DNA of 64,000 nucleotides, from positions 2,604-66,603 of the forward strand of contig CBDBCV010000008.1 of assembly GCA_965203455.1 (NCBI GenBank), read 5' to 3'. The position numbers were made by a program, and so were the translations under genes. The notes beneath the pieces are model-generated. The model saw only the letters and a program-made list of their open reading frames with translations, did no database searches and had not been told where the DNA came from. This DNA is from Alphaproteobacteria bacterium (GTDB lineage Bacteria; Pseudomonadota; Alphaproteobacteria; MPNO01). Below are positions 29,564 to 61,531 of this stretch, piece by piece; position 1 is the stretch's first letter; each line of letters begins with the position of its first letter.

Positions 29564-29576
29564 CGCAGCCCCCTAA

Positions 29577-31644: not shown

Positions 31645-31664
31645 GCCGGTCCGGGAGACGGGCG

Positions 31665-32630: not shown

Positions 32631-32638
32631 CCACCTCA

Positions 32639-35280: not shown

Positions 35281-37841
35281 CCGTTGAAACGCTCGGATTC
35301 GGAGTTCTTCAGTTCCTCGACGGGCTTCCGGCGGACGAAATAGCGGTAGTTCGTCCCGCGCCCACCGGCGATTTCCTTGCCGGTATCGCCGTAGATTGTC
35401 TCCTTGTGGATCTGTCCGGAGACCTTCCTGCGGACCCGATGGGACACCACGATGGCCGCGGCCGCCCGATCGGCGTCGCTTCGAATCGTTCCCCAGGGCG
35501 GGGGAAGGTGCGGCTGGGGCGCGCGCGGATCGTCTTCTTCCTGCCAGTATCGCGCGAGCTGTTGCGTCATCCCGGGGTGGCAGCACGCGACCGCCAGCGC
35601 ATCGACCGCGTGATGGCGGTGATCGGCGCGGGTCTTCTCACCGTCGTCGGCCAAAATATTGTTCAGCCCCCAGAGGCGACGCAGATGCGCGGTGACGCGA
35701 CCGGACACAGCCTGGACGGTGACTGGTGCCTCCGGCCCGAGGTCCGGCCACAGCTTCTTGAGGTAGGCGGCGGCCTCGCGGGCGGCGTACCCGGTGTCGT
35801 TCAACTGCCGGGTGGCGAAATCCTCCGGGATGGAAGGCGCCAGGAATCGCCTGATCTTGCCGGAAGACATGCCCGTCCTGCCCTTGGCGGCCTTCATGCC
35901 GGCCAGTCGGTTCGCAAGGGCATCCCATTCTTCCTCGTTGCTTCGGAAGAACTCCTTCGGGGTCAGGTTACCCTTTTTGAGGTTCACGTCCTTGCGGCAG
36001 AGAGTCTTGTTCCTGAAGCCGTTGTCGAGCGAGCGGGATCTCGGCCAGATGTGCTCCACCTCAAACTCTCCGGTGCGGAACAGGGCGTCGAAGCAAATCG
36101 TGTCCCCGGTGTACGGACAGCGGTGGCCGCACTCCTCCCAGAGCATCCATTTCTCGACATCCGTGCGGGACGGTTCGGCGAACCCGTTCTCCTGGAGCGC
36201 CTCGCGGGCCGCCTTCCGGCGCCGTTCCTGGCGGCGGATGCCCGACGCCTTTTCCTCGCGCTGGCGCTTTGAGTTGCCGACATCGCGCGCGACTTCGACG
36301 CGAATCAGGTCCGGCTTGCCGTACAGGTCGATCAGATTGTTGACCACCTTGCGCAGCTCATTGCGCGTGCGGGCGACCGTCGGGTTGCGCAGGCTGGCGA
36401 GGCGTTCCCTTTCTTCGCGGTCAGTCGGGCTCGGAAGGCGATCGAACACCTCGCCTGTCGGCTGTTCCCGATCGGGAAACGTCTCCGCTCGCCACGCCTC
36501 CCAATCGGGACTCATGACCAGTTCGCCGAACCTGACCCCGGCTTCGAGATGCGGCAGCATCGCCTGCAGCGCCTCGACGGAATAGGGCTCCCAGCCGGAC
36601 GGCAGTTTCAACGTCTCGATCTTGGTCGCCTGATCGTTCGACAGGCCGAACTCCCCGACGAAATTCCGCACGACTTCCGCCCTGCGCTTCGTTCGCTCGG
36701 CCCTGGGAAGAATGACCACGCGCTGAGCGCCCACCTGTTCGTATTCGGCCTGCCAAGTCCGGTGGGGAAGGGTATCCCGGAGTTCCTGCTTGCGCGGATG
36801 CTCCTGCCAATCGCTGCCGAAAATATCCGAGAGCTTCGCCTCCACCGGATTGCCGAGCAGTTTCTTCTCTCCGCTTTCCTCCAGGTTGAACTTGAGCGCC
36901 CTCTCCTCGCCGGGTTCGCCGCGGGCCCGGTAGAGCGGTGCGAGCGCCTGCCGAACGCCGGGCCAGGTCATCGAGGCCTGCGTTTGCAATTTGGAGAGAA
37001 TGGCCGAGCGTTCTTTGAGGTCGAGAGGACGCTGATTGCCGCCGGCAAGCGCGAGGTTGTTCAACTTCTCGAGCATGCGCCGCTGCTGCGAGAGCCAGGA
37101 CCCCTTGGGACAGAGGCGCGCGCCGGGGACGAACCGGCATTTGCCGAGCGTGTTCAGTCGCCAGAAGACGGGCCGCTGGACGAAGATTGCGTCCCGAACG
37201 GAAGAGCGGGATGACCCCGGAACGAGCGGCTTCCACACCCTCTCGAACTCATCCTCGACGATATCCCGCGTGGCATGCTCACCCCGCTTGCGCTCATGCG
37301 GTCCCCGTGCGGCGAGCCAGGCGCCGAGCGTCTTGCGCTCGCGCTTCAATGCCTGAACGGTTTGATCCCGCGCGGACGTCGCTTTCTTGTCGTCTGCATC
37401 ATCGGGCGCGTCATCGGCAGTGTCGGAAACCTCGTCGATATCGCGGCCCCTGAAGTGGCGGCGCTGCGCAAGGTGATAGATGGCGCGGCCGATTTCATGG
37501 GTAGACAGCGTCTCGTCCTCAAACGCGCGCCGCCGGAGATCGTAGGGATCGCGCTTCATGACCCGATCCCAGTCGGACGAATTGCGCGATGGCAGCAATC
37601 CGGCGGCATGCAATAGATCGCCGAGCAGGCGCCGGCGCTCTCGCCGACGGCGCAGTTGACGGCGGCGAAGACGGGCCCGCCGCCGCTCCTGGTTCAACGG
37701 CACGCCCTTCGGATCGCGGGCTTCCGGGAAGATTCGCACGCCGAGACGGTGGATTTTTCCCGTGGCGAGCTCGGGATCGTGGTCGATCACGGCGAACCCG
37801 ACCGAGGTTGTACCGATGTCGAGGCCGAATACGAGCGGCAT
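35281..37841 (-). pseudogene. cas9: cas9 N-terminal ~855 aa (RuvC-I, bridge helix, REC, HNH, RuvC-II/III), disrupted downstream by the IS91-family element. Start codon lies within the IS256 target duplication.
   Basis: RuvC-I 'GLDIGTTSVGFAV'. Arg-rich bridge helix. HNH 'EVEHIWPRSRSLDNGFRNKTLCRKDVNLKKGN'. RuvC-III 'HHAVDALAV'. Native sequence ends near '…RKPVEELKNSE'. Confidence 0.9.
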
Positions 37842-37847
37842 GCGAGG

Positions 37848-39126
37848 GTGACGTAAGAATTTATGTGTCAGGCGGGAAGGGGGTACTCCCTGTGGTGATG
37901 ACAACCACAAGCAGGAGCACCCCGCATGTCCCAGCAAGCTGCGACGATCATGAGCCTACCGCAGGCGTTTGAGGTGGTGAAGGAGATGCAGGCAGGCGGA
38001 CTGGACTGGGGCGAGGGTTATCGCCCGCTCGGCCGCCAGGCGCTGGCCGAGATCATTGAGGGCCGGATGGCCGAGGCGGTGGACCGCTGGCTCGACAACC
38101 TGGACGCCGGCGCGATGCGCGACCGGCGCAACGGCACCTACCGGCGCTGCCTGCTGAGCGAGCTCGGCGACATCGAGTTCAACGTGCCGCGCACCCGGCA
38201 CTTCTGCCCGACCGGTGTTCTGAAGAGCTATGCAAGGCGCGCGCCGGAGATCGACCGCGCCATCCTGGCCGGCTTCGTGCTGGGGCTCTCGACGCGCAAG
38301 GTCGGCGAGGTCTTGCTGGCTCTGCTCGGATGTCCGGTCTCGGCCGCGACGGTCAGCCGGGTCGCCAGGACGCTCGACATGGCGGTCGCGGCCTTCCACC
38401 GCAGGCCGCTGAAGAACGCCTACAAGGCGCTGATGCTCGACGGCGTGGTGCTGGCCCGCAAGACCGGCGCCGGCGCGCTCAGGAGGCCGGTCCTGGTGGC
38501 GCTGGGCATCCGCCCCGACGGCAAGAAGGAGATCATCGACTTCCAGCTGGCCGGCAGCGAGAGCGCCGCGGAGTGGGAAGCGTTCCTCAACCGGCTCTAC
38601 CACCGCGGGCTCACCGGAGAGGGCCTGGAGATGATCTGCGTCGATGGCGGCAAGGGCCTGCTGGCCGCCTTGCCCTTCGTCTATCCCGGCATCCCGGTTC
38701 AGAGGTGCTGGGCGCACAAGATGCGCAACATCCTCAACAGGGTCCGCGAGGCCGACCAGGAGGCCGTCAAGGCCGACGTCCACGCCGTCATGAATGCCCC
38801 CAACCGCCGCAAGGCCCAGAGCGCCGCGCGGCGCTTCGCCGACCGTTGGCAGAGCGCTTACCCCAAGGCGGTCGACTGCCTGCGCAACGATCTCGACGAT
38901 CTGCTCACCTGCTACCGCTACAGGACCCTTGCCGAGCGAAAGCGGGTCAGGACCACAAACGCCATCGAACGAAGGTTCCGGGAGGTCCGCAGACGAACAC
39001 GGCCCATGGGAACCTTCCAGGACCCAACCTCAATGGACCGCGTCCTCTACGCGGTCTTCATCCACGAAAACAAGTCTCAGGGAATCAGCACCCCCGTCTC
39101 CCTGACACATAACTCTTGACGTTACC
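37848..39126 (+). mobile_element. IS256-family IS (~1279 bp) inserted exactly at the cas9 start codon.
   Basis: Imperfect IRs 'gtgacgtaagaatttatgtgtcagg' and 'ggtaacgtcaagagttatgtgtcagg' (reverse complement). 8–9-bp duplication '(c)atgcgagg' at 37839–37847 and 39127–39135 contains the cas9 ATG. Confidence 0.85.
37926..39119 (+). CDS. IS256-family (mutator-type) transposase
   Basis: 397 aa. 'RCWAHKMRNI' and DDE motifs are typical of IS256 Tnp. Confidence 0.9.
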   Translation: MSQQAATIMSLPQAFEVVKEMQAGGLDWGEGYRPLGRQALAEIIEGRMAEAVDRWLDNLDAGAMRDRRNGTYRRCLLSELGDIEFNVPRTRHFCPTGVLKSYARRAPEIDRAILAGFVLGLSTRKVGEVLLALLGCPVSAATVSRVARTLDMAVAAFHRRPLKNAYKALMLDGVVLARKTGAGALRRPVLVALGIRPDGKKEIIDFQLAGSESAAEWEAFLNRLYHRGLTGEGLEMICVDGGKGLLAALPFVYPGIPVQRCWAHKMRNILNRVREADQEAVKADVHAVMNAPNRRKAQSAARRFADRWQSAYPKAVDCLRNDLDDLLTCYRYRTLAERKRVRTTNAIERRFREVRRRTRPMGTFQDPTSMDRVLYAVFIHENKSQGISTPVSLTHNS

Positions 39127-42645: not shown

Positions 42646-43116
42646 ATGAAGACCGTAAACATTTTCCGTGTGATTAGGAACACCACACGCCGAATCGAGC
42701 CCTTCCATTCCGAATTCCTAGCAGAGGCTTTGCGCATCAGCGCGGAAGGAAACCGCTCGTTGTTCGATGCAGTGTGGAGGCTGGCTGCGCCGGAAGGCTG
42801 GGACATTCCCGTGGAACCCAAGATCGAATCCGAGGATATGATGGAAGACGGGAAGCGGATTGACATCTGTATCTTCGACAAACCCCGTGGCCGGCTTCTG
42901 GGAATCGAGGTCAAGACAACCAAGGCTTCAGCGAAGGAAAGACAACTCGAAGACTATCTCGAAGGACTTTGCAAGAAGTATGGATATGACAGCAACGACC
43001 AGGATGGCATAGCCATCGGCTATCTCACGCCGTTCAACCGTGATCGTGCGGGTGATGCTGCCGATTTTCTTCCGACCGTTGGAATATTTGAGAAATTCCG
43101 ACAGAACCATGAAAAT
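42646..43116 (+). pseudogene. Low-GC PD-(D/E)xK nuclease-like gene, 5' part (interrupted by IS3 copy 2).
   Basis: '…GKRIDICIFDKPRGRLLGIEVKTTK…' is a D…(D/E)xK motif. GC by eye ~50–52%, well below the GC-rich flanking genes. Confidence 0.6.
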
Positions 43117-43176
43117 TGAGGTGGCGTCGCAAAATCGGACAGGTCGTCAAGGTGTATTCCGCCGTGTGACGGAGGA

Positions 43177-43464
43177 ATGCGGATGAGCAAGCGACGCAGG
43201 TTTTCGGGGGAGCTGAAGGCGAAGATAGCCTTGGAGGCGCTACGGGGTGATCGGACGCTTCAGGAGATTGCCTCGAAGCACCAGGTGCATCCGAACCAGG
43301 TGGGTGTGTGGAAGCGCCAGGCGATGGAGGGTCTGGGGGAGGTCTTTTCCGGTGGAGGTGAGCGCCGGGCGCGGGATCACGAGAGCGAGGTCCGGGCTCT
43401 TCACGCCAAGATCGGGGAGTTGATCGTAGAGCGTGATTTTTTGTCACGCGGGTCCGGTCGCTGA
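43177..43464 (+). CDS. IS3-family OrfA (copy 2)
   Basis: Identical to 31357..31644. Confidence 0.9.
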   Translation: MRMSKRRRFSGELKAKIALEALRGDRTLQEIASKHQVHPNQVGVWKRQAMEGLGEVFSGGGERRARDHESEVRALHAKIGELIVERDFLSRGSGR

Positions 43465-43484
43465 GCCGGTCCGGGAGACGGGCG

Positions 43485-44450
43485 ATGGTTGTGCGGGGCC
43501 ACCCGTCGTTGAGCCTGACCCGGCAATGCCGTCTGCTGTCGATCGGGCGCTCGTCGCTCTATGACCGGCCGAAGGGGGAGAGCGCGGAGACGCTGGCTCT
43601 GATGCGCCGGATCGACGCGCTGTTCCTCAAGTATCCGTTCTACGGCGCCCGCCAGATGGTTCGGCATCTGCGCCGCGAGGGGGTGCGGATCGGGCGGCGG
43701 CGGGCCGCTCGCCTGATGCGCCTGCTTGGTCTTCAGGCGGTCTATCGGGCGCCGCGGACCAGTGCGCCGCACCTCGGGCACCGGGTTTATCCATATCTGC
43801 TGCGGGGTCTGGCGATCGAGCGGCCGAACCATGTGTGGTGCGCCGACATCACCTACATCCCGGTGCGGCGCGGCTTCCTCTACCTGGTGGCGATCATGGA
43901 CTGGGCGAGCCGCTGCGTCCTGGCCTGGCGGCTGTCGAACACGCTGGACGCGGGGTTCTGTGTCGAGGCTCTCGACGAAGCCCTGGCGCGCCATGGCACC
44001 CCGCAGATCTTCAACACCGACCAGGGCAGCCAGTTCACCGGCTTCGCCTTCACCGCGCGCCTGCGGGAGGCCGGTATCCGCATCTCGATGGACGGCCGCG
44101 GCCGGTGCATGGACAACATCTTCATCGAGCGGCTGTGGCGCTCGCTCAAATACGAGGCGGTCTACCTGCACGAGATCGCCGACGGCTTCGCAGCCCGGCG
44201 CGTCATCGGCCAGTGGATCGGCTTCTACAACACCGAGAGACCGCACTCGGCACTCGGCGGGCGGACGCCGGCCGAGGCCTACCGGGGCGACACGCCTGTG
44301 GATATGATGGACAAGCCGCTTCGCGCCTTGACCACATACCCACAGGCGCAACAGCAGCAGCAGAAAGATCGATCCAAGAGGATTCTGGCGGCACAAACTT
44401 CAACCGGAATACACCTTGAAAACGCCGTCAGCCTGTCCGACAAACCGACG
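43485..44450 (+). CDS. IS3-family OrfB (copy 2), 3' end approximate.
   Basis: Identical to the copy 1 orfB. Confidence 0.85.
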
Positions 44451-44458
44451 CCACCTCA

Positions 44459-44908
44459 AATGCCCGCCATATGAGCTGGCTAGATATTGCCGACATCCCA
44501 TGGGACGGCAATGAATTGTGGAGGCAACAACAAGCGTATGTTCACCAGGAAATCGCAAGCTACAAGAAACTCCGATCCTTTATATCTCGCAATCGGGCGT
44601 TCGACGAATTTTTCTCGCCAGAGAAAGTTGAGAGATTCTGGGACGCTCTCCCGTTCGACGGCGACAAGGCTGCCGATGCTGGCGCAACCATAGACCTTGC
44701 AACGCTCGGAAATGACCCGACACCGCTTGTCAGGGCGTTTGAAATTCTCATTGAGGACGAAGAAAACGTGTCGGGTAGGGTCAACAAGCAGGACGACTTT
44801 CCAGACGAGTTGCGTCAACCCTTCAAGGATTCGCCATTCAGGGATATTCACGAAGCACTCTTCGCCCTCTCGGATCGACAACATGTCTGGCTGGCCGGAA
44901 AGAAGGAG
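44459..44908 (+). pseudogene. PD-(D/E)xK nuclease-like gene, 3' continuation (in frame with 42646..43116 once the IS3 copy and one AAT are removed). Cut again by IS3 copy 3.
   Basis: Frame arithmetic: 1345 bp removed ≡ 1 mod 3. '…HENARHMSWLDIADIPWDGNELW…'. Reconstructed product is at least 304 aa. Confidence 0.55.
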
Positions 44909-44968
44909 TGAGGTGGCGTCGCAAAATCGGACAGGTCGTCAAGGTGTATTCCGCCGTGTGACGGAGGA

Positions 44969-45256
44969 ATGCGGATGAGCAAGCGACGCAGGTTTTCGGG
45001 GGAGCTGAAGGCGAAGATAGCCTTGGAGGCGCTACGGGGTGATCGGACGCTTCAGGAGATTGCCTCGAAGCACCAGGTGCATCCGAACCAGGTGGGTGTG
45101 TGGAAGCGCCAGGCGATGGAGGGTCTGGGGGAGGTCTTTTCCGGTGGAGGTGAGCGCCGGGCGCGGGATCACGAGAGCGAGGTCCGGGCTCTTCACGCCA
45201 AGATCGGGGAGTTGATCGTAGAGCGTGATTTTTTGTCACGCGGGTCCGGTCGCTGA
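44969..45256 (+). CDS. IS3-family OrfA (copy 3)
   Basis: Identical to the other copies. Confidence 0.9.
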   Translation: MRMSKRRRFSGELKAKIALEALRGDRTLQEIASKHQVHPNQVGVWKRQAMEGLGEVFSGGGERRARDHESEVRALHAKIGELIVERDFLSRGSGR

Positions 45257-45276
45257 GCCGGTCCGGGAGACGGGCG

Positions 45277-46242
45277 ATGGTTGTGCGGGGCCACCCGTCG
45301 TTGAGCCTGACCCGGCAATGCCGTCTGCTGTCGATCGGGCGCTCGTCGCTCTATGACCGGCCGAAGGGGGAGAGCGCGGAGACGCTGGCTCTGATGCGCC
45401 GGATCGACGCGCTGTTCCTCAAGTATCCGTTCTACGGCGCCCGCCAGATGGTTCGGCATCTGCGCCGCGAGGGGGTGCGGATCGGGCGGCGGCGGGCCGC
45501 TCGCCTGATGCGCCTGCTTGGTCTTCAGGCGGTCTATCGGGCGCCGCGGACCAGTGCGCCGCACCTCGGGCACCGGGTTTATCCATATCTGCTGCGGGGT
45601 CTGGCGATCGAGCGGCCGAACCATGTGTGGTGCGCCGACATCACCTACATCCCGGTGCGGCGCGGCTTCCTCTACCTGGTGGCGATCATGGACTGGGCGA
45701 GCCGCTGCGTCCTGGCCTGGCGGCTGTCGAACACGCTGGACGCGGGGTTCTGTGTCGAGGCTCTCGACGAAGCCCTGGCGCGCCATGGCACCCCGCAGAT
45801 CTTCAACACCGACCAGGGCAGCCAGTTCACCGGCTTCGCCTTCACCGCGCGCCTGCGGGAGGCCGGTATCCGCATCTCGATGGACGGCCGCGGCCGGTGC
45901 ATGGACAACATCTTCATCGAGCGGCTGTGGCGCTCGCTCAAATACGAGGCGGTCTACCTGCACGAGATCGCCGACGGCTTCGCAGCCCGGCGCGTCATCG
46001 GCCAGTGGATCGGCTTCTACAACACCGAGAGACCGCACTCGGCACTCGGCGGGCGGACGCCGGCCGAGGCCTACCGGGGCGACACGCCTGTGGATATGAT
46101 GGACAAGCCGCTTCGCGCCTTGACCACATACCCACAGGCGCAACAGCAGCAGCAGAAAGATCGATCCAAGAGGATTCTGGCGGCACAAACTTCAACCGGA
46201 ATACACCTTGAAAACGCCGTCAGCCTGTCCGACAAACCGACG
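45277..46242 (+). CDS. IS3-family OrfB (copy 3), 3' end approximate.
   Basis: Identical to the other copies. Confidence 0.85.
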
Positions 46243-46439
46243 CCACCTCAGATTACGGCCTCAGGGTTACGCACAAACGCCATAGCAGTGGCGTGAGCCT
46301 TGCGAGAAGCGAAGGCGTAGGGTGCCTCGTAGTCGGACAGCCTCGTTAGCCCGGGAGTTGGTCGGCCGGAGTTGGGCACTGGCAAAGCCTGCATCCGGCG
46401 ACAGGTCCGGGACTGGTCAAGCCAGCACCAACGTATTGA

Positions 46440-50840: not shown

Positions 50841-51258
50841 GGTGCCGTCTCCTTCGTGCCGGTGAAGAAAATCGGCGGCCGGACGCCCGACCGCCGCCCC
50901 GCTCACGGCCAGGCCTCTCCTCCTGCCGGCGAGGAGCGTGCGGGAGGGGAGACCGGAAGGAGGACGGCGGGCCGGCAACACGCGTCGGACGGAGCGCGGA
51001 CGCCGAGCACTGTTTCCCTTCGGGGCGCAACGGCTTTCCCCGCGCCGCCGAAATGCGTATCCATGGCGCCGTGGGCGGACGGTCCCGGCGTCAGCGAAGA
51101 CCGTGGCGGGACCGGCCTATGTTTGGAACTGAATTTCCGCGTCGTAGGGACCGGCCTCTTCGATTTCGACCAGATCCGACAGCGGACTGCGCTTGAGGTT
51201 GAACATCATCGTACGCGCTGGGCGATGCAATGGAATCCAGCCGCCCTGACGGGCATGA

Positions 51259-51307
51259 TTGACAACAAACTTGTTGCCAACTATGTTGATGCCAACAAGA
51301 TAGTTGG
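51259..51307 (+). promoter_or_regulatory. Predicted sigma70 promoter (−35 TTGACA at 51259–51264, 17-nt spacer, −10 TATGTT at 51282–51287) with an overlapping 8-bp inverted repeat (putative operator).
   Basis: 'ccaactat' at 51277–51284 and 'atagttgg' at 51300–51307. Locally lower GC. 10 nt upstream of the ATPase ATG. Confidence 0.5.
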
Positions 51308-51316
51308 AAGATAGCC

Positions 51317-52564
51317 ATGATGCGAAAGGGCGGCAGCAACTGGGTCGACGGAGAGAACTTCCTCGACCGCGAGACGGAGCTGGAAGCGCTGGAAGAGCGG
51401 GTCCGGGAGGGAACCCACACCCTGCTGACCGCGCAGCGGCGGATGGGCAAGACCAGCCTCGTCCGGGAGTTGCAGCGCCGGCTGGCCGAAACGGGAGACT
51501 TCGAGGTCGTCTTCGTCGATCTGGAGGCGGCCACCGATCCGGCCGATGCGATCGCCGAAATCGGGGTTCAGGTGAAGTCCGTGCGCCCGGCGTGGGATCG
51601 GGTCATGACCGGCTTCGCCAACCTGGTGAGACGCGCCGGCGACCGGATCGAGGAACTGTCGGTTGCGGATCTGAAGGTGAAGTTGCGCGCCGGGATCGAT
51701 GCGGGCAATTGGCCGCAAAGAGGGGACGCGATCCTTGCAGCCCTGGCGGAGAGCGGCCGGCCGGTCGTGCTCGCGATCGACGAGTTGCCGATACTCGTAA
51801 ACCGGCTGCTGAAGGACGGAACAGGCCGCATGACGCCGGAGGGGAAACGGGACGCGGACTCGTTCCTGAGTTGGCTGCGCAAGGTGGGGCAATCCCATCG
51901 GAACCGGCTCACGCTGATCCTGTCGGGCAGCGTGAGCCTCGAGCCGCTGCTCGAGGAGGCCGGGCTCAGCGCCCAGGCCAACATCTTCTCTCCCCATGAC
52001 CTGAAACCGTGGAGCGAGGAAACGGCTATATCCTGCCTGGAGGCGCTTGCAGAGACCTATGAGGTCGGTCTTCCGCCGGAGGCCAGCCGGGACATGTGCC
52101 GCAGGCTGCGCTGCTGCATCCCGCACCATGTCCAGATGTTCTTCGACAGGATGCACGGTCATCTGCGGCGCGCCGGGCGGAAGGACGCCTCGCTGGACGA
52201 TGTCGAACAGGTCTATGAGCAGGAGATGCTGGGGGTCCGGGGACAGGTGGACCTCCAGCATTACGAGGGCCGGCTGGAGATGGTGCTCGGAAGAGCGGGT
52301 TACATCGCCGCGCTGGAAATCCTGACGGCAACGGCAGTCGACGGCGTCATTGGCGCTGAAACGGTCGACCGATACCGCAACCATTTGGACGCGCAGGACG
52401 GAGATGGCGCTCCCTCGGTCGACCATGTTCTGCATGTGCTGCAGCACGACGGCTACCTCGAACCCGGGGACAGCGGATACCGGTTCGTTTCCGGACTCCT
52501 GGAAGACTGGTGGCGCGGGCGCTACGGGCATGGGTTCGTGCCCGTGTTCGACCGGCAGCGGTGA
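51317..52564 (+). CDS. P-loop ATPase (AAA+/STAND-like, Arch_ATPase-type), 415 aa.
   Basis: Walker A 'RRMGKTSLV', Walker B 'VVLAIDEL'. Sensor and winged-helix-like C-terminal half. Confidence 0.75.
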   Translation: MMRKGGSNWVDGENFLDRETELEALEERVREGTHTLLTAQRRMGKTSLVRELQRRLAETGDFEVVFVDLEAATDPADAIAEIGVQVKSVRPAWDRVMTGFANLVRRAGDRIEELSVADLKVKLRAGIDAGNWPQRGDAILAALAESGRPVVLAIDELPILVNRLLKDGTGRMTPEGKRDADSFLSWLRKVGQSHRNRLTLILSGSVSLEPLLEEAGLSAQANIFSPHDLKPWSEETAISCLEALAETYEVGLPPEASRDMCRRLRCCIPHHVQMFFDRMHGHLRRAGRKDASLDDVEQVYEQEMLGVRGQVDLQHYEGRLEMVLGRAGYIAALEILTATAVDGVIGAETVDRYRNHLDAQDGDGAPSVDHVLHVLQHDGYLEPGDSGYRFVSGLLEDWWRGRYGHGFVPVFDRQR

Positions 52565-52587
52565 GAACTGGAGCCGGGGCGATTGGT

Positions 52588-55500
52588 GTGACCGCCAGAA
52601 AATACAATCCGGGCTTTCTCTCCGACGACGAACTGGTCGCGACCTTCTGCGTCCGGACGGCCGAATACGACTCCCTGGTCGAGGCGTTGCGCGAATGTTC
52701 GGGCCGCGCGAACACCCATCAGATCGTGATCGGGCCGCGCGGCAGCGGAAAGACGAGCCTGCTGCTGCGGGTCGCTGCTGAGGTGCGGCGCGATGCCGAT
52801 CTCTCGGCGCGCTTTTTCCCGATCGTGTTCGCGGAGGAAAGCTATGAGGTCTCGACCGCCGGCGAGTTCTGGCTCGAATGCCTCTCCCGGCTGGCCGGGC
52901 AGGCGCCGCGCCGGGATGGCGATGTCGACCTGCACCGCACCTTCGAGGATCTACGCACCATCCATGACGACCGGACCCTGGAGGACCGGTGCCTCGGCGC
53001 GTTGCAGGACTTTGCCGACCGGGAAGCGAAGCGTCTCGTTCTGGTCGTCGAGAACCTCAACATGATGTTCAGGGACATCGGCGACGAAGACGCGGGCTGG
53101 CGGCTGCGGAAGACGCTGCAGACCGAGCCGCGGATCGTTCTGCTTGCGAGCGCGACCAGCCGGTTCGACCAGATGGACGATCCGAAGGAAGCGCTCTACG
53201 AGTTGTTCCGGGTGATCCGGTTGGACCCTCTCGGCACGGAAGACTGCGCGACCTTGTGGCAGACCGTGTCGGGGCAAGCGCGGGCGCCGCGGACGATCCG
53301 GGCGCTGCGGATTCTCACGGGCGGAAGTCCGAGACTGCTGACCATCGTGGCCCGGTTCGGCGCGAACCTGTCGTTCCGCGAGCTGATGGCCGAACTCCTC
53401 GACCTGGTCGACGATCATACCGAGTATTTCAAGAGCCATCTCGATGCGCTCCCTGCGCAAGAGCGCAAGGTGTATCTCGCCCTTGCCGATCTCTGGAAAC
53501 CGGCGAACGCGCGCGAGGTCGCGGACCGGACCAGACTCGGGACCAGCCAGTGCAGCGCCCAGCTTGCCCGGCTGGTCGACAAGGGCGCGGTCGAGGTGAG
53601 CGGCGGCAGCGCGCGGCGCAAGCTCTATTACCTGACCGAGCGGCTCTACAACATCTACTATCTGATGCGTCGGGCGCGCGGATCGACGCCGCTGGTCGAT
53701 GCGCTGATCCGCTTCATGGAGGCCTTCTACTCCACCGACAAACTGACAGAAATCGTCGCCCGCATGGCGCGGAAAGCGTCGAGGTTCGACGGCGGCGCGT
53801 TGGAGCTCCATCGGATGGCATTCGAGCGTCTCGTCGAACTGCCGTCCCTCAAGCCGCATCGCGAGGAGTTGCGGGCGCTTGCGCCGCCCGCCTTTGCCTA
53901 TGCGCCGCGTGAGTTTTCTGCGGTATTTGCGGTGCGAACCGGCACGCCGCGCCCGACCACCGATCCGGAAATCGTGCCGGGCGTCGATTTGGCCGCAACA
54001 GGCCGCATGGGCGCGCCGCGCATCCGCCCCACCCTCGCCGTTGACACGGTAGATCCGTCGGTCGCGGAGGGTCTGCTGGGGAAGGCGCTGGCTCTGGCGG
54101 AAAGCGGTCGGTTGGAAGACGCCGTGGCGATCTGGGATGAGGTTGTCCGGATGTTCGGGGAGAGCGACAAGCCGGCGGACCTCGAACAGGTTTCGATGGC
54201 GCTCGTCAACAAGGGTCAGGCGCTGGGCCGGCTGGGAAGAGCGGAAGAAGCGCTGGCCGTGCTGGACGATGTGGTGCAGCGTTTCAGGATGAACGACGGG
54301 GAAAGCTACCCTCTGGCGGTGGCGACAGCACTCGCCAGCAAGGGTGAAATGCTGAGCGCTCTCGACCGACACATGGAGGCACTGGCGGCATGGGACGAGG
54401 TCGCACGACGCTTCGGCGAAAGCCGGATGCCAGCGCTTGAGGCGCCGGTGGCTCATGCGATGGTCGGGACGGCAGCAGTCGCGCTGAATGAATTGGACCG
54501 GCCCCAGCAAGCCTTGGATTCCTGCGATGAAATGCTGGAACGTTTCGGCAAGAGCGCTTCGCCGGCGCTGCACCGTGAAGTGGCGGCGGCCATGGTCGGA
54601 CGGGGTCACGCGCTCATCGCGCTGAAGCGCGTCGACGAGGCGATAAGCGCCTGGGGCGCCGCGGTGGAGCGTTTCGGGAGGAGCGACTCTCCCAAAATCC
54701 TCGAACAGGTGGCCCCGGCGCTTGCGAACGTGGGCGTGGCGCTCTTCCGGTCCGGCCGGGTGGAGGAGGCGCTGACAGCGTTCGATGGGGTCGTGCAAAG
54801 CTACGGGGCAAGCGATTCGCCGATCCTGCGGGAGGTGGTCGCGCGCTGTTTCGTCGACAGGGGCAATGTGCTGGCCGCGTTGAACCGGAAAACCGAAGCG
54901 CTCTCGTCGTGGGAAGAGGCGATCATGGCCTTCGGGACGGGATGCTCGCCGGGGACGGCAAAACCGCATTGCAACGCGCTGATGAACAAGGCTGCGGCGC
55001 TGCGCGACGCGGGAAGGCATGAGGAAGCGCTGGAGTTGTGGGGCGACGTGGTGGAACGCTTCGGGGCCGACGATCGGCCCGGAATTCTCACCATGGTCGC
55101 GAGTGCGCAGACCTTCAGATGCGCATTGCTGGAACAGTCGGGCCGATACGAAGAGGCGCTTGTTGTATGGCGGCAGGTCGAAGACCGGTTCGGGAACAGC
55201 GACGCGCCGGAGTGGATGGAGCTTATCGCCAGCTCGTACATGCAGAGATCCGCCAACCTGTTCAGGCTGAACCGGCTGGAAGAGGCGCTTGCTGTCTGCG
55301 ACCGGGCGGTGAATCGCTTCGAGGGGAGTGACCTGCCAGCGGTTATCGATGCCGTTGCCGGGATTCTCGTAAACAAGGGAATTCTGCTCGCAAAGTCCGG
55401 CAGACACGAAGAGGCTCTGGCGGTCTGGGACGACATCAAACGCCGTTTCGGAAACAGCGACGAGCCGGAACTTCTGAAGCAGGTTGCCTCGGCCCTGGTC

Positions 55501-56337
55501 AACAAAGGCGCGACGCTGGTTCATATGAGCCGGCCGGAGGATGCGGTTGGGCTATGGAACGACGTCGTGTGCCGGTTCGGGGAAGGCGATGCATCCCCGT
55601 ATCACGAGGATATTGCGACGGCTGTCCTCAACAGGGTGCAGGTTCTGGGCTTGTTGAAACGGCTGGACGAGGCGCTTGAAGCCTGTGACGAGGCGCTCCG
55701 GCGGTTTGGGAGCAGCGAAGAGCCCTACGGTGTCGAGGCCGTCGCGCAAGCCCTCGCCAGCAAGGGCTCGTTCCTTGTCGACCTGGACCGGACCGAGGAG
55801 GGGTTCGCGGCGTGGGACGAGGTAGTTCGGCGCTTCGAGGCGAGCGATGCACCGGCGCTTCGAGACGCAGCGGAATTGGCGTTGTGCAGGCGGGCACAGC
55901 ACGAATTGGCCGAAGGCCGGGCGAGGACTGCCCTGGGATTCCTCGATCGTGCGCTTCTGCAGACGCGGGCGGGTATGCCAGTCACCAGATTGCACGGCTA
56001 TTTGGTCCGGGCCTGGGCGAATCTGGCGGAAGGCAACGGCGAAGCATGCGCCGACGATGTCGAGAAGGCGTTGTCGATCCTTCCCGAAGTGGACATGTTG
56101 CCGAGGCGCGCGCTGGTTGTCCTGGCCGACCTCTCGGCGGGCGTTGGGCCGGAAAGGATGTGCGATCTGATCAAGTCATCGCCCGCTGGCGACCTCCTGC
56201 TTCCGCTGAGGACGGCGCTGGAACGGGAGCTCGGGTTGGAGCTGAGGGTAGCCAGGGAAGTCGAAGAGATTGCCGAAGATATACGCCGGGAATTGCTGGT
56301 CGGGCGCGAGAGCGAAAAGCATCGGCGGGTGACTTGA
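52588..56337 (+). CDS. Large STAND-like NTPase (paralogous P-loop ATPase + winged helix + ~13 tandem TPR-like units). GTG start.
   Basis: Walker A 'GPRGSGKTSLL', Walker B 'LVLVVENL'. wHTH '…SARRKLYYLTE'. From ~aa 520, a ~35-aa unit '…EEAL.xWDEVV.RFG.SD.P.L..VA.AL.NKG…' repeats. Confidence 0.75.
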   Translation: MTARKYNPGFLSDDELVATFCVRTAEYDSLVEALRECSGRANTHQIVIGPRGSGKTSLLLRVAAEVRRDADLSARFFPIVFAEESYEVSTAGEFWLECLSRLAGQAPRRDGDVDLHRTFEDLRTIHDDRTLEDRCLGALQDFADREAKRLVLVVENLNMMFRDIGDEDAGWRLRKTLQTEPRIVLLASATSRFDQMDDPKEALYELFRVIRLDPLGTEDCATLWQTVSGQARAPRTIRALRILTGGSPRLLTIVARFGANLSFRELMAELLDLVDDHTEYFKSHLDALPAQERKVYLALADLWKPANAREVADRTRLGTSQCSAQLARLVDKGAVEVSGGSARRKLYYLTERLYNIYYLMRRARGSTPLVDALIRFMEAFYSTDKLTEIVARMARKASRFDGGALELHRMAFERLVELPSLKPHREELRALAPPAFAYAPREFSAVFAVRTGTPRPTTDPEIVPGVDLAATGRMGAPRIRPTLAVDTVDPSVAEGLLGKALALAESGRLEDAVAIWDEVVRMFGESDKPADLEQVSMALVNKGQALGRLGRAEEALAVLDDVVQRFRMNDGESYPLAVATALASKGEMLSALDRHMEALAAWDEVARRFGESRMPALEAPVAHAMVGTAAVALNELDRPQQALDSCDEMLERFGKSASPALHREVAAAMVGRGHALIALKRVDEAISAWGAAVERFGRSDSPKILEQVAPALANVGVALFRSGRVEEALTAFDGVVQSYGASDSPILREVVARCFVDRGNVLAALNRKTEALSSWEEAIMAFGTGCSPGTAKPHCNALMNKAAALRDAGRHEEALELWGDVVERFGADDRPGILTMVASAQTFRCALLEQSGRYEEALVVWRQVEDRFGNSDAPEWMELIASSYMQRSANLFRLNRLEEALAVCDRAVNRFEGSDLPAVIDAVAGILVNKGILLAKSGRHEEALAVWDDIKRRFGNSDEPELLKQVASALVNKGATLVHMSRPEDAVGLWNDVVCRFGEGDASPYHEDIATAVLNRVQVLGLLKRLDEALEACDEALRRFGSSEEPYGVEAVAQALASKGSFLVDLDRTEEGFAAWDEVVRRFEASDAPALRDAAELALCRRAQHELAEGRARTALGFLDRALLQTRAGMPVTRLHGYLVRAWANLAEGNGEACADDVEKALSILPEVDMLPRRALVVLADLSAGVGPERMCDLIKSSPAGDLLLPLRTALERELGLELRVAREVEEIAEDIRRELLVGRESEKHRRVT

Positions 56338-56651
56338 CCGTTTTCGGAAGTGGCGTCGGCTTGCTGTCGCACCAGTCAGGCCCGCGCAATGGATGTGACG
56401 GCGGCCATACCAGACGCCGCTCCCGCGGAAGGGATTGCCGACACATTCTGAACCGCTGGAATCCGCCTGCGCGGTCGATCGCGCACGGCTTCGGCTTCCC
56501 GGAATGCTTGCCGCGCGGCCCCGGACGCCGTGTTGCAATTGTGTTGATTCGGTCCTGGAGCGATCCAGCGGCATTTCAGGACCATTCATAATGCATTGTT
56601 ATTACAGGATATTTTTACGGTCATCCTGTAGGATTTCTACCATATAGCCGC

Positions 56652-57014
56652 GTGGCCAACCTCAGCATCGCCACCGATGAGTCCTACATGGATCGCCAGA
56701 CCGGCGAGCGGGTCGACCGCACCGAGTGGCACCGGGTCGTGACCTTCCAGAACGGCCTCATCGACATGCTGGAGCGGCATGCCAGGAAGGGCCGGCTGGT
56801 CCACGCCGAGGGCAAGCTCCAGACCCGGCGCTGGAAGAAGGAGGGCGAGGACTCCGACCGCTTCTCGACCGAGATCCTTCTGGTCCCGGGCGGGCGCGTC
56901 CAGTTCCTCGACAAGGCCAACGGCGCCCGGCCGCAGCCCGACCCGGACATGGCGAGCGACGCCGCTCCGGTTGCGGCGCCCGCCGACATGGACGGCGACC
57001 GGATTCCGTTCTGA
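56652..57014 (+). pseudogene. ssb: Single-stranded DNA-binding protein, 5'-truncated (lacks ~35 N-terminal residues of the OB fold).
   Basis: 'ANLSIATDESYMDRQTGERVDRTEWHRVVTF…' and C-terminal acidic tail '…DMDGDRIPF'. Upstream is an AT-rich hairpin 'tacaggatatttttacggtcatcctgta' rather than the ssb 5' end. Confidence 0.75.
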
Positions 57015-57060: not shown

Positions 57061-57132
57061 TCTTTTTTTGCTGCCGGTCCGGAGGCGTCCCCGGTTCCAT
57101 GGTAAGCGTCCGGCGTGACCGCCCCTGCGTGG

Positions 57133-58134
57133 TCAGTCGGCGGCTTCCCGATCTTCTGCGGGCGCGGTGTTCCACGGCAGCAGATCGTCGATGCGGTTGA
57201 TCCTGTAGTCGGGGATGCGTTCGAGGACCTGAGCAAGCCAGGCCTGCGGATCGACATCGTTGAGCCTGGCGGTCTCGATCAGGGTGTAGGCGATGGCGGC
57301 GGCCCTGCCGCCGCTGGCCGAGCCCATGAAGAGATAGTTCTTGCGGCCGAGCGCGATCGGCCTCATTGCGCGTTCGGCGGGGTTGTTGTCGATCTCGAGG
57401 AAGCCGTGCTCGAGATAGGGTCGAAGGCGCTTCATCCGGGTCAGGGCATGACGGATCGCCGCTGCCAGCGGGGTCTTGGCGGAGATTCTGGGCAGCTGCG
57501 ATTGCAGCCACCGCTCCAGCTCGTCGAGGCACGGCGCGGCCTTGGCCTGGCGGATGGCCGCGCGGTTCTCGGGCGGCTGCCCGCGGGCCTCCTTCTCGAT
57601 AGCGTAGAGGGCGGCGATCCGTTCCAGCGCCTCGGCGGCGATCGCCGAGCCCTGGGCGGCATGGACGTCGAAGAACTTGCGTCGCACATGCGCCAGACAG
57701 GCCACCTCGCGGACCGGCCCGGCGCGCGCCAGCGCACCGAACCCGGCATAGCCGTCCGAGTGCATCCAGCCGGCGAAGCCTTCAAGATGCGCCTTCGGAT
57801 GCGCCGCCTTGCGGTCGGCCGAGAAGCGGTACCAGGCCGCCGGCGGCGCCTCGCCAGCCCAGGGCCGCTCGTCCCGCACGTAGGTCCAGGCCCGGCCGGT
57901 CGCCGTTTTGCCGGTTCCCGGCGCCAGCAGCTTGACCGGGGTGTCGTCGGCGAACAGGGCTTGTCCTTCCAGCACATGGCGCCCGATCGCATCGGCCAGG
58001 GGCTCCAGCAGCGCCGTCGCCTTGCCGACCCAGCCGGCGAGCGTCGAGCGGTCGAGCTCGACGCCGTCGCGGGCGAAGATGCGGGACTGGCGGTAGAGCG
58101 GCAAGCGAGTCGCGCGGGGGAATCTCACCCCCAC
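57133..58134 (-). CDS. tnpC: IS66 TnpC C-terminal part (copy 2)
   Basis: Identical to 25401..26402. Confidence 0.9.
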   Translation of the reverse strand: MGVRFPRATRLPLYRQSRIFARDGVELDRSTLAGWVGKATALLEPLADAIGRHVLEGQALFADDTPVKLLAPGTGKTATGRAWTYVRDERPWAGEAPPAAWYRFSADRKAAHPKAHLEGFAGWMHSDGYAGFGALARAGPVREVACLAHVRRKFFDVHAAQGSAIAAEALERIAALYAIEKEARGQPPENRAAIRQAKAAPCLDELERWLQSQLPRISAKTPLAAAIRHALTRMKRLRPYLEHGFLEIDNNPAERAMRPIALGRKNYLFMGSASGGRAAAIAYTLIETARLNDVDPQAWLAQVLERIPDYRINRIDDLLPWNTAPAEDREAAD

Positions 58135-59954
58135 GCGCTCCCAGAACCGTACGTGAACCTCTCAGCTCATACGGCTCCCAGCGTCCGGCCCTGCCCGTGC
58201 ACAAGGGTCCAATGGGCGAACCGCCACGGCTCCGCTTTCGCGATTCTGGCAAGCCAGAGACGAGCCTGACGCGGTCGTTGTCGGAAGCGTTTGAACTTCC
58301 GCATTGCCCATCGCTGCAAGTGGGCGTCTATCAGACGAAGGGTCGGATAGAGCGCCGACTTGTAGAATGCGCCGAAGTAGCCGATCCACCCTGCAATTTC
58401 GCGATGAAACATGCGGGCAAGGTCAAGCAGTGCCTTGTCGCTACGCCGTTGCAAACGCCACTGTCGCACGCGGCGCCGAAACGCCTTGAGCGCAGTCGGG
58501 CTGGCAGCCGGAAGGAACGAGACCCCGAACAACCCGCCGCGCCACGCCGCGAACCTTGGCTGGAAACGGTAGCCCAGGAAGTCGAACGCGACCGTCGGGT
58601 AGTCCGCCTTGCGGTTGGTATCCTTGCAGTAGACCACCTTGGTCTTCTGCGGATGGACCTCCAGGCCGCACTCGGCCAATCGGTCCGCAACCCGCCGCCA
58701 GAGGGTCTTTGCCGCCTCCTCCGTTCGACAATGGCAGATTATATCGTCCGCATACCGTTCGAACGGAACATGCGGCATCGACCTTTTCATCCATTGATCG
58801 AACGCATAGTGCAGGAACAGGTTGGACAATACTGGCGAAATTACCCCGCCCTGTGGCGTGCCCCTGTCCCGTGCGACAACGGTGCCGTCCTCCTCGATCA
58901 CGGGAGCCTTCAACCAGCGCTCGACATAGAGCAGCACCCACCGGCAGTCCGTATGGTGACGAACGGCCTTCAGCAGCAACTCGTGGTCGATGTTGTCGAA
59001 GAACCCCTTGATGTCCATGTCCAGCACCCAGTCGTAGCGCCAGCATCGCCGACGCGCTGTCCGGATGGCGTCAATGGCGGATCGCTTCGGCCGATATCCG
59101 TATGAGTCCTCATGGAAAATCGGTTCCAACAAGGGCTCCAGATGTCGGCGAACAACCTCCTGAGCGATGCGGTCCGTGACCGTCGGTATGCCCAACGGGC
59201 GCTTCCCGCCGCCCTCCTTGGGGATGTTCACCCTGCGAACCGGAGGCGGCATATAGCTGCCTGAGGACATGCGATTCCAGAGCTTGTAGAGTTCCGGACC
59301 AAGCCGTTCCTCCAGACTCTCGACCGTCTGCCCATCTACTCCAGCCGCTCCCCGGTTTGCCTTCACATGCTTGAAGGCTTCCCAGACTTCCCTCTTTGCT
59401 ATCGGGAACGGCTTTGCCCCTGTCATCCGGCTCCTCCTGTCACCAGTTGGCCGACGGCAGCGGCTGAACACCACAGCCCCTTCGGTCCAGCGCCATTACA
59501 GCGCCTTCATCCCTACTACGGGCTGTTCTGCCCCTGTGCCCCGCATCGGTACTCTGAGCCTTCCGGGGGCTGCCCGGTTGGCCGTCTCCCTTGGCATCGG
59601 GACGACAGGTTCTCCTGTTCCGCAAGAAAGCCTGTTCCGGGTTCACGCCGCCTTCGAGCCGGATGCCGCGTGGGCCGGACTCCAGGACTCCGCCCATGCT
59701 TGTCCCGGAGTGACCACCACCCCCGGTTCTGACATCGACCATACGCTTTCGGCAGTTCATCGGCGGTTCGCTTTCGCTCGTCTCCCCGGACCTCACCTGA
59801 CGAGATCGTCGTCCCGCCGTTTCCACGACGCTCACCACCATCGCTCTTTACGACAGCAGCTCGTGGTGGTTTGAGACCGACGCCTGATCGTCGACCCCGA
59901 GGGGCCTACCCTCATCTCTCTTGCAGTTGCGCACCTCCTTTCATGGCGGTGCTT
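58132..59954 (-). mobile_element. Group II intron (copy 2). Boundaries ±10 bp.
   Basis: Identical to the 26400..28222 copy. Confidence 0.9.
58167..59474 (-). CDS. Group II intron RT/maturase (copy 2)
   Basis: Identical to 26435..27742. Confidence 0.93.
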   Translation of the reverse strand: MVFSRCRRPTGDRRSRMTGAKPFPIAKREVWEAFKHVKANRGAAGVDGQTVESLEERLGPELYKLWNRMSSGSYMPPPVRRVNIPKEGGGKRPLGIPTVTDRIAQEVVRRHLEPLLEPIFHEDSYGYRPKRSAIDAIRTARRRCWRYDWVLDMDIKGFFDNIDHELLLKAVRHHTDCRWVLLYVERWLKAPVIEEDGTVVARDRGTPQGGVISPVLSNLFLHYAFDQWMKRSMPHVPFERYADDIICHCRTEEAAKTLWRRVADRLAECGLEVHPQKTKVVYCKDTNRKADYPTVAFDFLGYRFQPRFAAWRGGLFGVSFLPAASPTALKAFRRRVRQWRLQRRSDKALLDLARMFHREIAGWIGYFGAFYKSALYPTLRLIDAHLQRWAMRKFKRFRQRPRQARLWLARIAKAEPWRFAHWTLVHGQGRTLGAV

Positions 59955-60529
59955 CAGGACACACGGTGATCGCAATACTTCGAGACCAGCACATGCGCCA
60001 GAAGGCCGGGGCCCGGTCGGCCGCGCTCGATCGGTCGCGGCGGCAGCGGCGCCTGGTGGAACTTCTCGCAGCCGCCGCAGGCCAGGCGCGGACGGACGAT
60101 GCGCTTCACCACGAAGCGGCCGGGGATGTACTCCAGCTCCTCCGTCACATCCTCGCCGAGCCGCTTGAGACGGCCGCCGCAGTCCGCGCAGCGCTCGCCC
60201 GGCGCGAGAACCGTCTCCTCGCGCGGCAGGTGGTCCGGCAGGGGACGGCGCTTCGGCTGCTTCTTCGTGGCGGGCGTCGGCTCGGTCGGCGCCTCGGCCG
60301 CCCGCGCGATCTCCTCGTCCTCCAGCCCGAGATCAAGCTGGTCGAGGGCCTCCGAGGTGACGCCGAAGCGCTGCCGCCGCAGACCCGCAAGCTGGTGCCT
60401 GAGCTTCTCGATCAACAGATCGCGGTTGCGCAGCTCGGCGTCCCGTGCCGCCAGTTCGGCCCGCGAGGCCAGCACCATCGCCTTCAACGCGGCGATGTCG
60501 TCGGGCAGGGAATGGGCCGCTTCGAGCAT
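59954..60529 (-). CDS. tnpC: IS66 TnpC N-terminal part (copy 2)
   Basis: Identical to 28222..28797. Confidence 0.9.
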   Translation of the reverse strand: MLEAAHSLPDDIAALKAMVLASRAELAARDAELRNRDLLIEKLRHQLAGLRRQRFGVTSEALDQLDLGLEDEEIARAAEAPTEPTPATKKQPKRRPLPDHLPREETVLAPGERCADCGGRLKRLGEDVTEELEYIPGRFVVKRIVRPRLACGGCEKFHQAPLPPRPIERGRPGPGLLAHVLVSKYCDHRVS

Positions 60530-60603
60530 GGCCGCATCCTACCCGAAGGGGCCGACAAAGGGAAGCCCGAATGACAGTCAACCCATTGTTTATAAACGGT
60601 GAA

Positions 60604-60978
60604 TCAGCCCGCGGCCAGCGGTCTCCAGGTGCGAACCGGCGCCCGCCAGTCGATCCCCTCAAGCAGCATCGACAGCTGCGCCGGCGTCACCGACACCTTC
60701 CCTTCCGATGCCGACGGCCACACGAAGCGGCCGCGCTCCAGACGCTTCGAGAACAGGCACGCACCCTGGCCGTCCCACCAGATCATCTTGATCAGGTCGC
60801 CCCGGCGGCCGCGGTAGATGAAGAGATGGCCGCAATGCGGATCCGCCTTCAATACCCGCTCCGCCTGCGCCGCGAGACCGGGGAACCCCTTGCGCATGTC
60901 GGTCACGCCGCAGGCCAGCCATACCCGGGTCGAGGAGGGAACCGGGATCATCCGCCAAGCGCCCGCACCACCCGGCAC
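60604..60978 (-). CDS. tnpB: IS66 TnpB (copy 2)
   Basis: Identical to 28872..29246. Confidence 0.9.
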
Positions 60979-61295
60979 AGCGCGTCCGCGTCGAACGACC
61001 CGAACGCGCTCACCCGGTGGCCGTTCGACAACGCGATCTCGATCCGACCGTCCGATGCCGCGGCCGGCTCCAACGGCAGCGCATCGGGCACCACCTCCAC
61101 CGGCAGGAAGGACGGCGCCTCCCCGGCATCGGCCGCCGGCCTGTAACGGGGATCGCGCCGCCAGGTGAAGATCAGGTTGGCGTTGACGTCATAGCGGCGC
61201 GCCACAACCGACACCGAGACACCGGGAGCGTAGCTCTGCGCCACGATCCGGCGCTTCTCGTCGTCCGACCAGAACCGGCGTACCCGACGTGGCAC
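60948..61295 (-). CDS. tnpA: IS66 TnpA (copy 2)
   Basis: Identical to 29216..29563. Confidence 0.9.
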
Positions 61296-61414
61296 CGCAG
61301 CCCCCTAAGATAGTGTCCATTAGCCGATAATGGACACTATCGACCTCTGGAACCTCACCACAGACTGCGGCTCCAAGCCGTCTCGCCACAAGGGCGGTCA
61401 CGCCAGACGCTTAC

Positions 61415-61531
61415 GCTGAGCGAGGCGATCGACGCGGTGGAGCGCGGCGAGGATCCGCCGGGCACATTGCGGGACCCGGCCGACGGGATCGTCGTGGTGC
61501 CGTCGGGCAACGAGGTCATCGCCCCCGGATA
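61415..61531 (+). pseudogene. 3'-terminal fragment of an unknown gene, truncated by IS66 copy 2.
   Basis: Open frame from the IS end: '…LSEAIDAVERGEDPPGTLRDPADGIVVVPSGNEVIAPG*'. Confidence 0.35.

Follow-up and report, generated by a model that had tools for sequence, protein, structure and literature searches.

A stretch of 64,000 nt from an alphaproteobacterial genome (GenBank assembly GCA_965203455.1, contig CBDBCV010000008.1; the whole stretch is called the window here) carries at 51259-56337, on the forward strand, a promoter overlaid by three operators and followed by two genes, called A and B below. Both encode P-loop ATPases of the switch type. The cassette matches no named system, and is a credible candidate for a new kind of bacterial surveillance or defence module. 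Our tentative reading, which we rate at not quite an even prospect, is of an autorepressed, effector-less module in which two ATPases of the NOD type (a domain of nucleotide binding and oligomerization) are paired for surveillance (conflict or defence), and which spreads by horizontal transfer.

The two same-strand open reading frames (ORFs) extend across 51317-56337 with coding-like codon-position GC, in a window of about 67% GC overall. A and B are adjacent in all of the 83 related loci in which linkage was counted (the genome scan with A itself gave 80), with a gap of roughly 10-40 bp, and stay adjacent even where A is only 45% identical. The initial annotation had read this stretch as a two-gene cassette of P-loop ATPases and had proposed co-occurrence of the genes as a check; the reading and the check both hold across these loci. 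In most of about 85 related loci, conservation at the DNA level sets in exactly where the -35 hexamer does, at 51259, and ends at about 56300-56347, at the stop codon of B, so that the limits first drawn around the cassette mark a true unit. Clustering of 1417 neighbour ORFs from the related loci, in which antisense ORFs inside A arising from crude ORF calling were disregarded, gave no third conserved gene. Nothing beyond promoter/operator, A, and B belongs to the unit. A self-mobile element with terminal repeats or a recombinase was considered and rejected, as the conserved block stops at the promoter and at the B stop codon.

Gene A (51317-52564, + strand; coding-like third-position GC of 0.82) encodes a protein of 415 aa with about 1950 homologues, typically 418 aa long and 70-88% identical. 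Its Pfam matches are to P-loop families (AAA_22, E = 3e-8; ATPase_2/PF01637, 1e-7; AAA_16), with the ATPase_2 score borderline, at 32.4 bits just under the cut-off of 33.2. There is a Walker A motif (AQRRMGKTS, aa ~39-47) and a Walker B motif with the canonical DE (VLAIDE, aa ~151-156); GKTS and hhhhDE are invariant across homologues. The place of the GxP motif in PF01637 proteins and in signal transduction ATPases that have numerous domains (STAND) is occupied in A by CCIPHHVQMFF (aa 266-276, window 52112-52144), invariant down to 45% identity. The two Cys and two His of this motif could make a metal site. In an AlphaFold model (pLDDT, the predicted local distance difference test, 76), the AAA+ P-loop core is accompanied by a helical insertion, a lid, and a C-terminal winged helix (aa ~344-404). 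Foldseek places PAB2304 and SSO1545 (both PF01637) and archaeal Orc1/Cdc6 at the top ranks; the model is also alignable over 260-295 residues with CED-4 and with plant NB-ARC proteins of the type with nucleotide-binding domain and leucine-rich repeats (NLR), resembles TnsC, and has MalT among its structural neighbours. Searches of Pfam, PADLOC, and NCBIfam found no effector domain (nuclease, TIR, SIR2, protease, or other) in A, and there is no repeat sensor. Its modelled fold and NOD-like matches mark A as no more than a NOD module ending in a winged helix, free of sensor and effector; the suggestion that A acts as the effector of the pair finds no domain support.

Gene B (52588-56337, + strand) encodes another NTPase of the NOD type. 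Its NTPase core is followed by a winged helix, an array of 14 tetratricopeptide repeat (TPR)-like units, and a helical tail. The translation of 1249 aa is 100% identical to a public protein (P0001). Possible starts are GTG at 52588 (1249 aa), GTG at 52561 (1258 aa, the public gene call, overlapping the A stop codon), and ATT at 52582; as the last of these corresponds to the ATG start of B homologues, the start in this copy is probably one of the two GTG codons. Homologues number more than 2800, of about 1210 aa, and all have the same layout. The NTPase core (52645-53076, +) matches AAA_16 (E = 4e-10), with weak Pfam matches to ORC-CDC6-like (borderline, 26.2 bits for a cut-off of 27), nSTAND1, and nSTAND5. 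Walker A (GPRGSGKTS), a non-canonical hhhVEN-type Walker B (LVLVVEN), and a GxP-type motif (GGSPRLL, aa ~245-251, nt ~53320-53340) are each invariant across the family. The winged helix-turn-helix (wHTH) that follows (aa ~291-348; 53458-53631, +) is of the TrmB/MarR type: TrmB scores 26.8 bits (E = 4.9e-6, cut-off 25.6), and MarR_2 and DUF7342 match weakly. It is kept down to 45% overall identity, in a region where AlphaFold confidence is low. Foldseek searches with the low-confidence model of the N-terminal part gave generic AAA+ matches, the best TM-scores being to archaeal Orc1/Cdc6.

The sensor-like array of B (aa ~494-1098; 54067-55881, +) is made up of tandem 43-aa units in which the anchor W-D-x-V-x-x-R-F-G recurs at exactly 43-residue spacing; Pfam matches include TPR_12 (6e-28), TPR-S (1e-10), and other TPR families. 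The array is more variable than the N-terminal module, and its length varies widely among relatives. In the linker before it, at ~53938-54060 (aa ~451-490), there is a P/T/R-rich insertion of about 40 aa, which L001, the closest relative, also has and most homologues (1210 aa) lack. The C-terminal helical region (aa ~1099-1249; 55882-56337, +) is conserved among homologues and has no match in Pfam, PADLOC, or NCBIfam. The order of NTPase, wHTH, and repeat sensor that was first proposed for B is thus borne out by the AAA_16 match, the TrmB-type wHTH, and the TPR array, found in that order, while the count of about 13 repeat units becomes 14 by the 43-aa period. B was also said to carry no fused effector, and in Pfam, PADLOC, and NCBIfam it likewise matched no nuclease, TIR, SIR2, protease, or other effector domain. 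At 50% identity the B-type NTPase family forms 4337 clusters (E ≤ 1e-3); among its best 150 representatives, the NTPase lies at the extreme N-terminus (residues 1-10) in nearly all, and no effector was found in the long and short family members checked.

Walker A is intact in both proteins, but the description of A and B as paralogous was too strong. In BLASTP they are 25% identical over 102 aa (E = 0.004), and hhalign aligns just 36 columns around the P-loop (probability 51%). The two have a fold class in common without being recent paralogues; a recent duplication was rejected, as the similarity is confined to the P-loop region. Sequence searches gave no useful relatives of solved structure.

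The third part of the unit is its control region. A scan of 5.9 kb returned a single sigma-70-like match, -35 TTGACA at 51259-51264 and -10 TATGTT at 51282-51287 (+) with a 17-bp spacer. Lying over the -35, the -10, and the start region are three tandem 14-bp palindromes of the form CAAC-N6-GTTG, with a 15-bp period: O1 at 51263-51276, O2 at 51278-51291, and O3 at 51293-51306 (+; O2 has GATG in this copy). The near-consensus promoter overlapped by a palindrome that had been noted at first is therefore confirmed, with three palindromes in place of one. Across loci, the consensus TTGA-CAAC-N6-GTTG-C-CAAC-(N)ATATT-GTTG-C-CAAC-N6-GTTGG stands upstream of A nearly everywhere, with a -10 that is mostly GATATT or AATATT in the other loci. 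The window contains five overlapping matches to CAAC-N6-GTTG, all at 51258-51306, for an expectation of 0.06 in 64 kb; the palindromes are at the A promoter in 80 of 81 related loci, and 299 of the 312 motif matches in 1.5 Mb fall there. The operator stretch is AT-rich (40% GC vs. 67% for the window).

The position of these putative operators, over -35, -10, and +1, is that of a repressor site. The wHTH of A and that of B are both kept at 45% overall identity, and distant plasmid relatives (Moraxella, Clostridium, Segatella) have their own, different repeated palindromes at the corresponding place. Such long-range co-variation of operator and proteins would be the signature of a cassette-encoded DNA-binding component autoregulating its operon. 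The conserved palindromes argue for probable autorepression by a cassette-encoded wHTH, and the conservation of the triple operator predicts a sequence-specific DNA-binding activity for the cassette. The triple operator also keeps alive a reading as a MalT-like regulator, an outcome that the initial annotation had itself listed as counting against defence.

Known defence systems were searched for in PADLOC v2 (2023), NCBIfam 2026, and Pfam. No PADLOC or NCBIfam family fits A or B; the PADLOC matches included mad8 (2.7e-6) and PDC-S01 (3e-3), and FxSxx_TPR reached 82 bits for a cut-off of 300. Membership of a known defence system was rejected, as these and DS41_1 are sub-threshold matches at the level of P-loop or TPR only. 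The same lack of a model match upholds the statement that the layout is not that of Avs, bNACHT, Lamassu, Septu, or Gabija, and a literature search for a named system with the A-B layout found none.

STAND proteins, by the definition reportedly given by Leipe and colleagues in 2004, combine a NOD module with a sensor. On this pattern, a P-loop NTPase with Walker A and Walker B is found in A (GKTS, hhhhDE) and in B (GPRGSGKTS, hhhVEN), a helical domain with a GxP motif is followed by a winged helix, and B has the C-terminal repeat sensor, with its 14 × 43-aa TPR-like units. No curated STAND model scores above its cut-off (nSTAND1 21.6 bits, cut-off 27.1; nSTAND5 21.5, cut-off 34), and neither A nor B has an NB-ARC or NACHT match in Pfam. 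The clades of a 2026 survey of STAND proteins (PMC13581612), as set out in its main text, could not be mapped onto the A-B family.

Several known groups resemble the cassette in part. Antiviral STAND proteins of the Avs or NLR-like kind (Gao et al., 2022; Lee et al., 2026, PMC13581612) share a central P-loop NOD with a winged helix, a large C-terminal sensor of TPR-like helical repeats, and an accessory, horizontally transferred distribution with some defence genes nearby. Unlike Avs, the cassette has no N-terminal or other effector domain, the NTPase being at the extreme N-terminus in nearly all of the 150 representative relatives; it has an obligatory sensor-less NOD gene upstream and its own triple operator, and no PADLOC Avs model matches it. 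The MalT/LAL-type (large ATP-binding regulators of the LuxR family) STAND regulators, which have an AAA_16 NTPase and TPR/SUPR-like repeats and include a structural neighbour of A (MalT), are alike in these respects, and a binding of repeated DNA boxes would be plausible for the cassette as well; they differ in having a LuxR/GerE-type HTH, where the only Pfam HTH in the cassette is the internal TrmB/MarR-like winged helix of B, and the cassette is a two-gene module with a repressor-like operator, no linked regulon, and patchy, mobile inheritance. The PF01637 proteins PAB2304 (PDB 2qen) and SSO1545 (PDB 2fna) and archaeal Orc1/Cdc6 have the same build as A, with P-loop, lid, and C-terminal winged helix, and the repeated DNA sites beside A recall the origin recognition box (ORB) elements of Orc1/Cdc6; A differs in its CCIPHH in place of GxP, its constant coupling to B, and the lack of a replication context. 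Plant sensor/helper NLR pairs also consist of two linked NOD-type ATPases with a repeat sensor on one only. This likeness is a functional analogy only: the cassette is bacterial and co-transcribed, with no coiled-coil (CC)/TIR-type executioner on either partner, and any hetero-oligomerisation of A and B is hypothetical.

Relatives at 65-91% identity occur in complete or near-complete chromosomes of Alphaproteobacteria, Gammaproteobacteria (87%), Bryobacterales (78%), Binatia (71%), and others. Some taxon assignments of loci rest on short binned contigs, while several are of complete chromosomes. Such identities across phyla, in a patchy pattern, require horizontal transfer. Most close relatives come from sponge-metagenome assembled genomes (MAGs) of different phyla (loci L004-L083), which suggests recent exchange within sponge microbiomes. 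A group at 45% identity is found in Desulfuromonadales, Nitrospirales, and Sedimentisphaerales, and more distant members in groundwater and sediment lineages. Public records name the homologues "hypothetical protein," "AAA family ATPase," or "tetratricopeptide repeat protein."

Four genomes each carry two divergent copies of the cassette (L007/L044, L038/L057, L032/L052, and L016/L043), with A 64-74% and B 61-72% identical between co-resident copies and B differing in length: ~1209 vs. 728 aa, 918 vs. 1200, and 1206 vs. 914 in the complete pairs, the B of L032 being cut off by a contig end. Both copies have the same CAAC/GTTG half-sites, so that regulatory cross-talk between them is possible. 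Other copies are disrupted, by an insertion in B (L020) or with broken matches to A (L051, L071-L073, and L075). At 21-24% identity, full-length A-like proteins are found on plasmids, each followed by a different partner: a 943-aa TPR protein in Clostridium estertheticum, a 699-aa NACHT-like/wHTH protein matching NACHT in Moraxella osloensis, and a 298-aa AAA + MarR-wHTH protein in Segatella copri. Carriage by phages or viruses was rejected, with no matches in phage and viral collections.

The genes around the related loci are heterogeneous, with housekeeping genes mixed among transposases, integrases, and toxin-antitoxin and defence genes; individual loci have DruA, QatD, DUF262/WYL, or toxin-antitoxin genes nearby. 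At E ≤ 1e-8, 139 immediate neighbours match 83 PADLOC families, including Dsr2 (2e-156), AbiEi (7e-90), DpdE, ZorD, NsnB, and AriA/Old/GajA, while 106 distal genes (at least 5 kb from the cassette) match 10, and more weakly; these are counts of hidden Markov model (HMM) families, redundant per protein, rather than of complete systems, and the distal control proteins are shorter than the immediate neighbours. Defence genes are thus moderately over-represented beside the cassette, which is suggestive but not conclusive. The anti-phage type of context claimed at the outset is supported to the extent that defence matches are more numerous and stronger beside the cassette than distally, but not by the many loci that lie among housekeeping genes.

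The conflict or defence reading is based on the accessory distribution, of the kind produced by horizontal transfer, on the duplicated and decayed copies, and on the moderate excess of neighbouring defence genes. A possible mechanism would begin with the wHTH of A or of B, probably within an A-B complex, binding the three operators and repressing the operon. The TPR array of B would bind a protein ligand, most probably one that a phage or an invading mobile element brings in; ligand and ATP would then switch B and drive its co-assembly with A, in the manner of sensor/helper NLR pairs. The switched B would alter DNA binding, so that the operon is derepressed, and the assembled ATPases might act directly, by sequestering the ligand, by loading on DNA, or by recruiting a host factor. 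These options for the output are guesswork, since no effector domain was found in B, A, or the roughly 150 relatives. A bolder version of this proposal, which we regard as decidedly doubtful, is a paired-NLR system with no enzymatic effector at all, in which B as the sensor NOD and A as the bare helper NOD would keep their own promoter shut through the three operators: an invader protein would titrate or switch B, the operon would derepress, and immunity would consist of the ATPase assembly itself, through sequestration or ORC/TnsC-like loading on DNA, with the system spreading across phyla and particularly within sponge microbiomes.

Several observations weigh against a surveillance or defence role. 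The missing effector, in both proteins and in about 150 representative relatives, is itself one of these. Conservation of the TPR array stands at about 80% among close relatives, so that the array is not hypervariable; the model of the N-terminal 520 residues of B is poor (pLDDT 59); and the family is absent from phage and viral collections. The neighbourhood counts carry the redundancy and the length difference noted with them, and in many loci the cassette has housekeeping genes on both sides, a transposase or small ORFs being the most that is present close by.

The chief competing explanation is a signal-responsive regulator pair resembling MalT, in which the TPR array of B would sense a ligand, either a small molecule or a protein, and, with A, B would bind CAAC-N6-GTTG by a winged helix at its own promoter and possibly at unlinked genes, in a physiological or symbiotic role and not an immune one. 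A conserved sequence-specific operator and an AAA_16 + TPR layout are what such a pair would be expected to have, many loci lie amid housekeeping genes, and the fair conservation of the TPR array fits as well. In the 2026 survey, non-defence STAND clades, transcription regulators among them, are interspersed with defence clades (PMC13581612), which also counts for this explanation. It has to contend, however, with the lack of a LuxR/GerE-type or other dedicated output HTH, with an operator placed for a repressor and not an activator, and with a motif that the 64-kb window has nowhere but at the cassette's own promoter, and that is nearly confined to that place in 1.5 Mb of related loci. There are no conserved neighbouring target genes, and the patchy spread across phyla, the divergent duplicates, and the pseudogenised copies fit an accessory module better. 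We consider a regulator pair of this kind unlikely, though it must be taken seriously.

The two other explanations weighed are less likely than a regulator pair. The resemblance of A to Orc1/Cdc6 and TnsC, and the three tandem repeats, reminiscent of ORB elements or iterons, in an AT-rich stretch (40% vs. 67% GC) beside an initiator-like gene, would suit a selfish maintenance or replication-control module, in which A binds iteron-like repeats and B regulates, derived from or serving an integrated mobile element (origin licensing, partition, target selection, or addiction); the distant relatives are indeed plasmid-borne. That such a module is at work here is very improbable: the conserved block holds a promoter and two genes only, with no recombinase, transposase, replicase, or partition gene linked; close relatives sit on chromosomes and gave no match in viral or phage collections; and the repeats coincide exactly with -35, -10, and +1, as an operator would. 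TPR proteins are an enriched class in sponge symbionts, and most close relatives of the cassette come from sponge-metagenome MAGs, so that B could instead be a "eukaryote-like" TPR protein for interaction with the host, with A as its dedicated chaperone or ATPase. This we find the most far-fetched of the readings: B has an N-terminal NTPase and a wHTH, with no secretion signal and no linked secretion system; the more distant members come from groundwater and sediment lineages or are carried by plasmids of Moraxella, Clostridium, and Segatella; and the bias in source may reflect which metagenomes have been deeply sequenced.

In the window itself, the cassette lies within a 27-kb stretch rich in insertion sequences (IS), bracketed by two direct repeats of 4323 bp that are 99.9% identical (25361-29683 and 57093-61415). 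Each consists of an IS66-family element (HTH_Tnp_1, TnpB_IS66, zf-IS66/LZ, and DDE_Tnp_IS66 pieces) interrupted by a group II intron with its reverse transcriptase/maturase ORF. The IS-bounded island that had been described is therefore real, and the bracketed region could be a structure like a composite transposon. A partial tandem copy of the IS end, 92% identical, follows the left repeat at 29692-30161. An IS3-type element of 1.35 kb (rve integrase core) is present in three copies that are 99.9-100% identical, at 31295-32642, 43115-44462, and 44906-46253, the last two almost in tandem. Between B and the right-hand IS66 there is a 120-aa ORF (56652-57014, +) with a partial match to the single-stranded DNA-binding (SSB) protein family over profile positions 26-98. 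The flank up to 57075 is common to L001, so that IS66 inserted into an L001-like neighbourhood; in L001, this continues into a DruA-containing gene group.

Of the defence-related genes proposed for the surroundings, the CRISPR-Cas remnants stand in part. A 220-aa Cas1 fragment (30091-30753, -) and a 908-aa Cas9 ORF (35211-37937, -; RuvC_III, HNH, and alpha-helical lobe) lie 13-21 kb upstream of the cassette, the 5′ end of the Cas9 ORF abutting a Mutator-family transposase gene (37926-39119, +). No CRISPR array was detected in the window, and the cas genes therefore look like a decayed type II locus. The Dam-like methylase came down to a partial, sub-threshold match in a 221-aa ORF (19.6 bits vs. 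a cut-off of 22), and no support was found for a PD-(D/E)xK nuclease-like gene.

If the cassette is a true defence or conflict system, its design would be uncommon in bacterial NLR-like immunity: two cooperating NOD ATPases with no fused effector, in a bacterial parallel to sensor/helper NLR pairs, and with an inbuilt circuit of autorepression that could serve at the same time as the logic of sensing. The family is large, with about 4300 clusters of the B-type NTPase at 50% identity, and is unannotated in public records; the whole unit measures 5.1 kb, brings a promoter of its own and a defined operator, and is compact and directly testable. Even if it should prove to be a regulator, the conserved pairing of operator and proteins would make it a clean model for how STAND/ORC-like ATPases read DNA.

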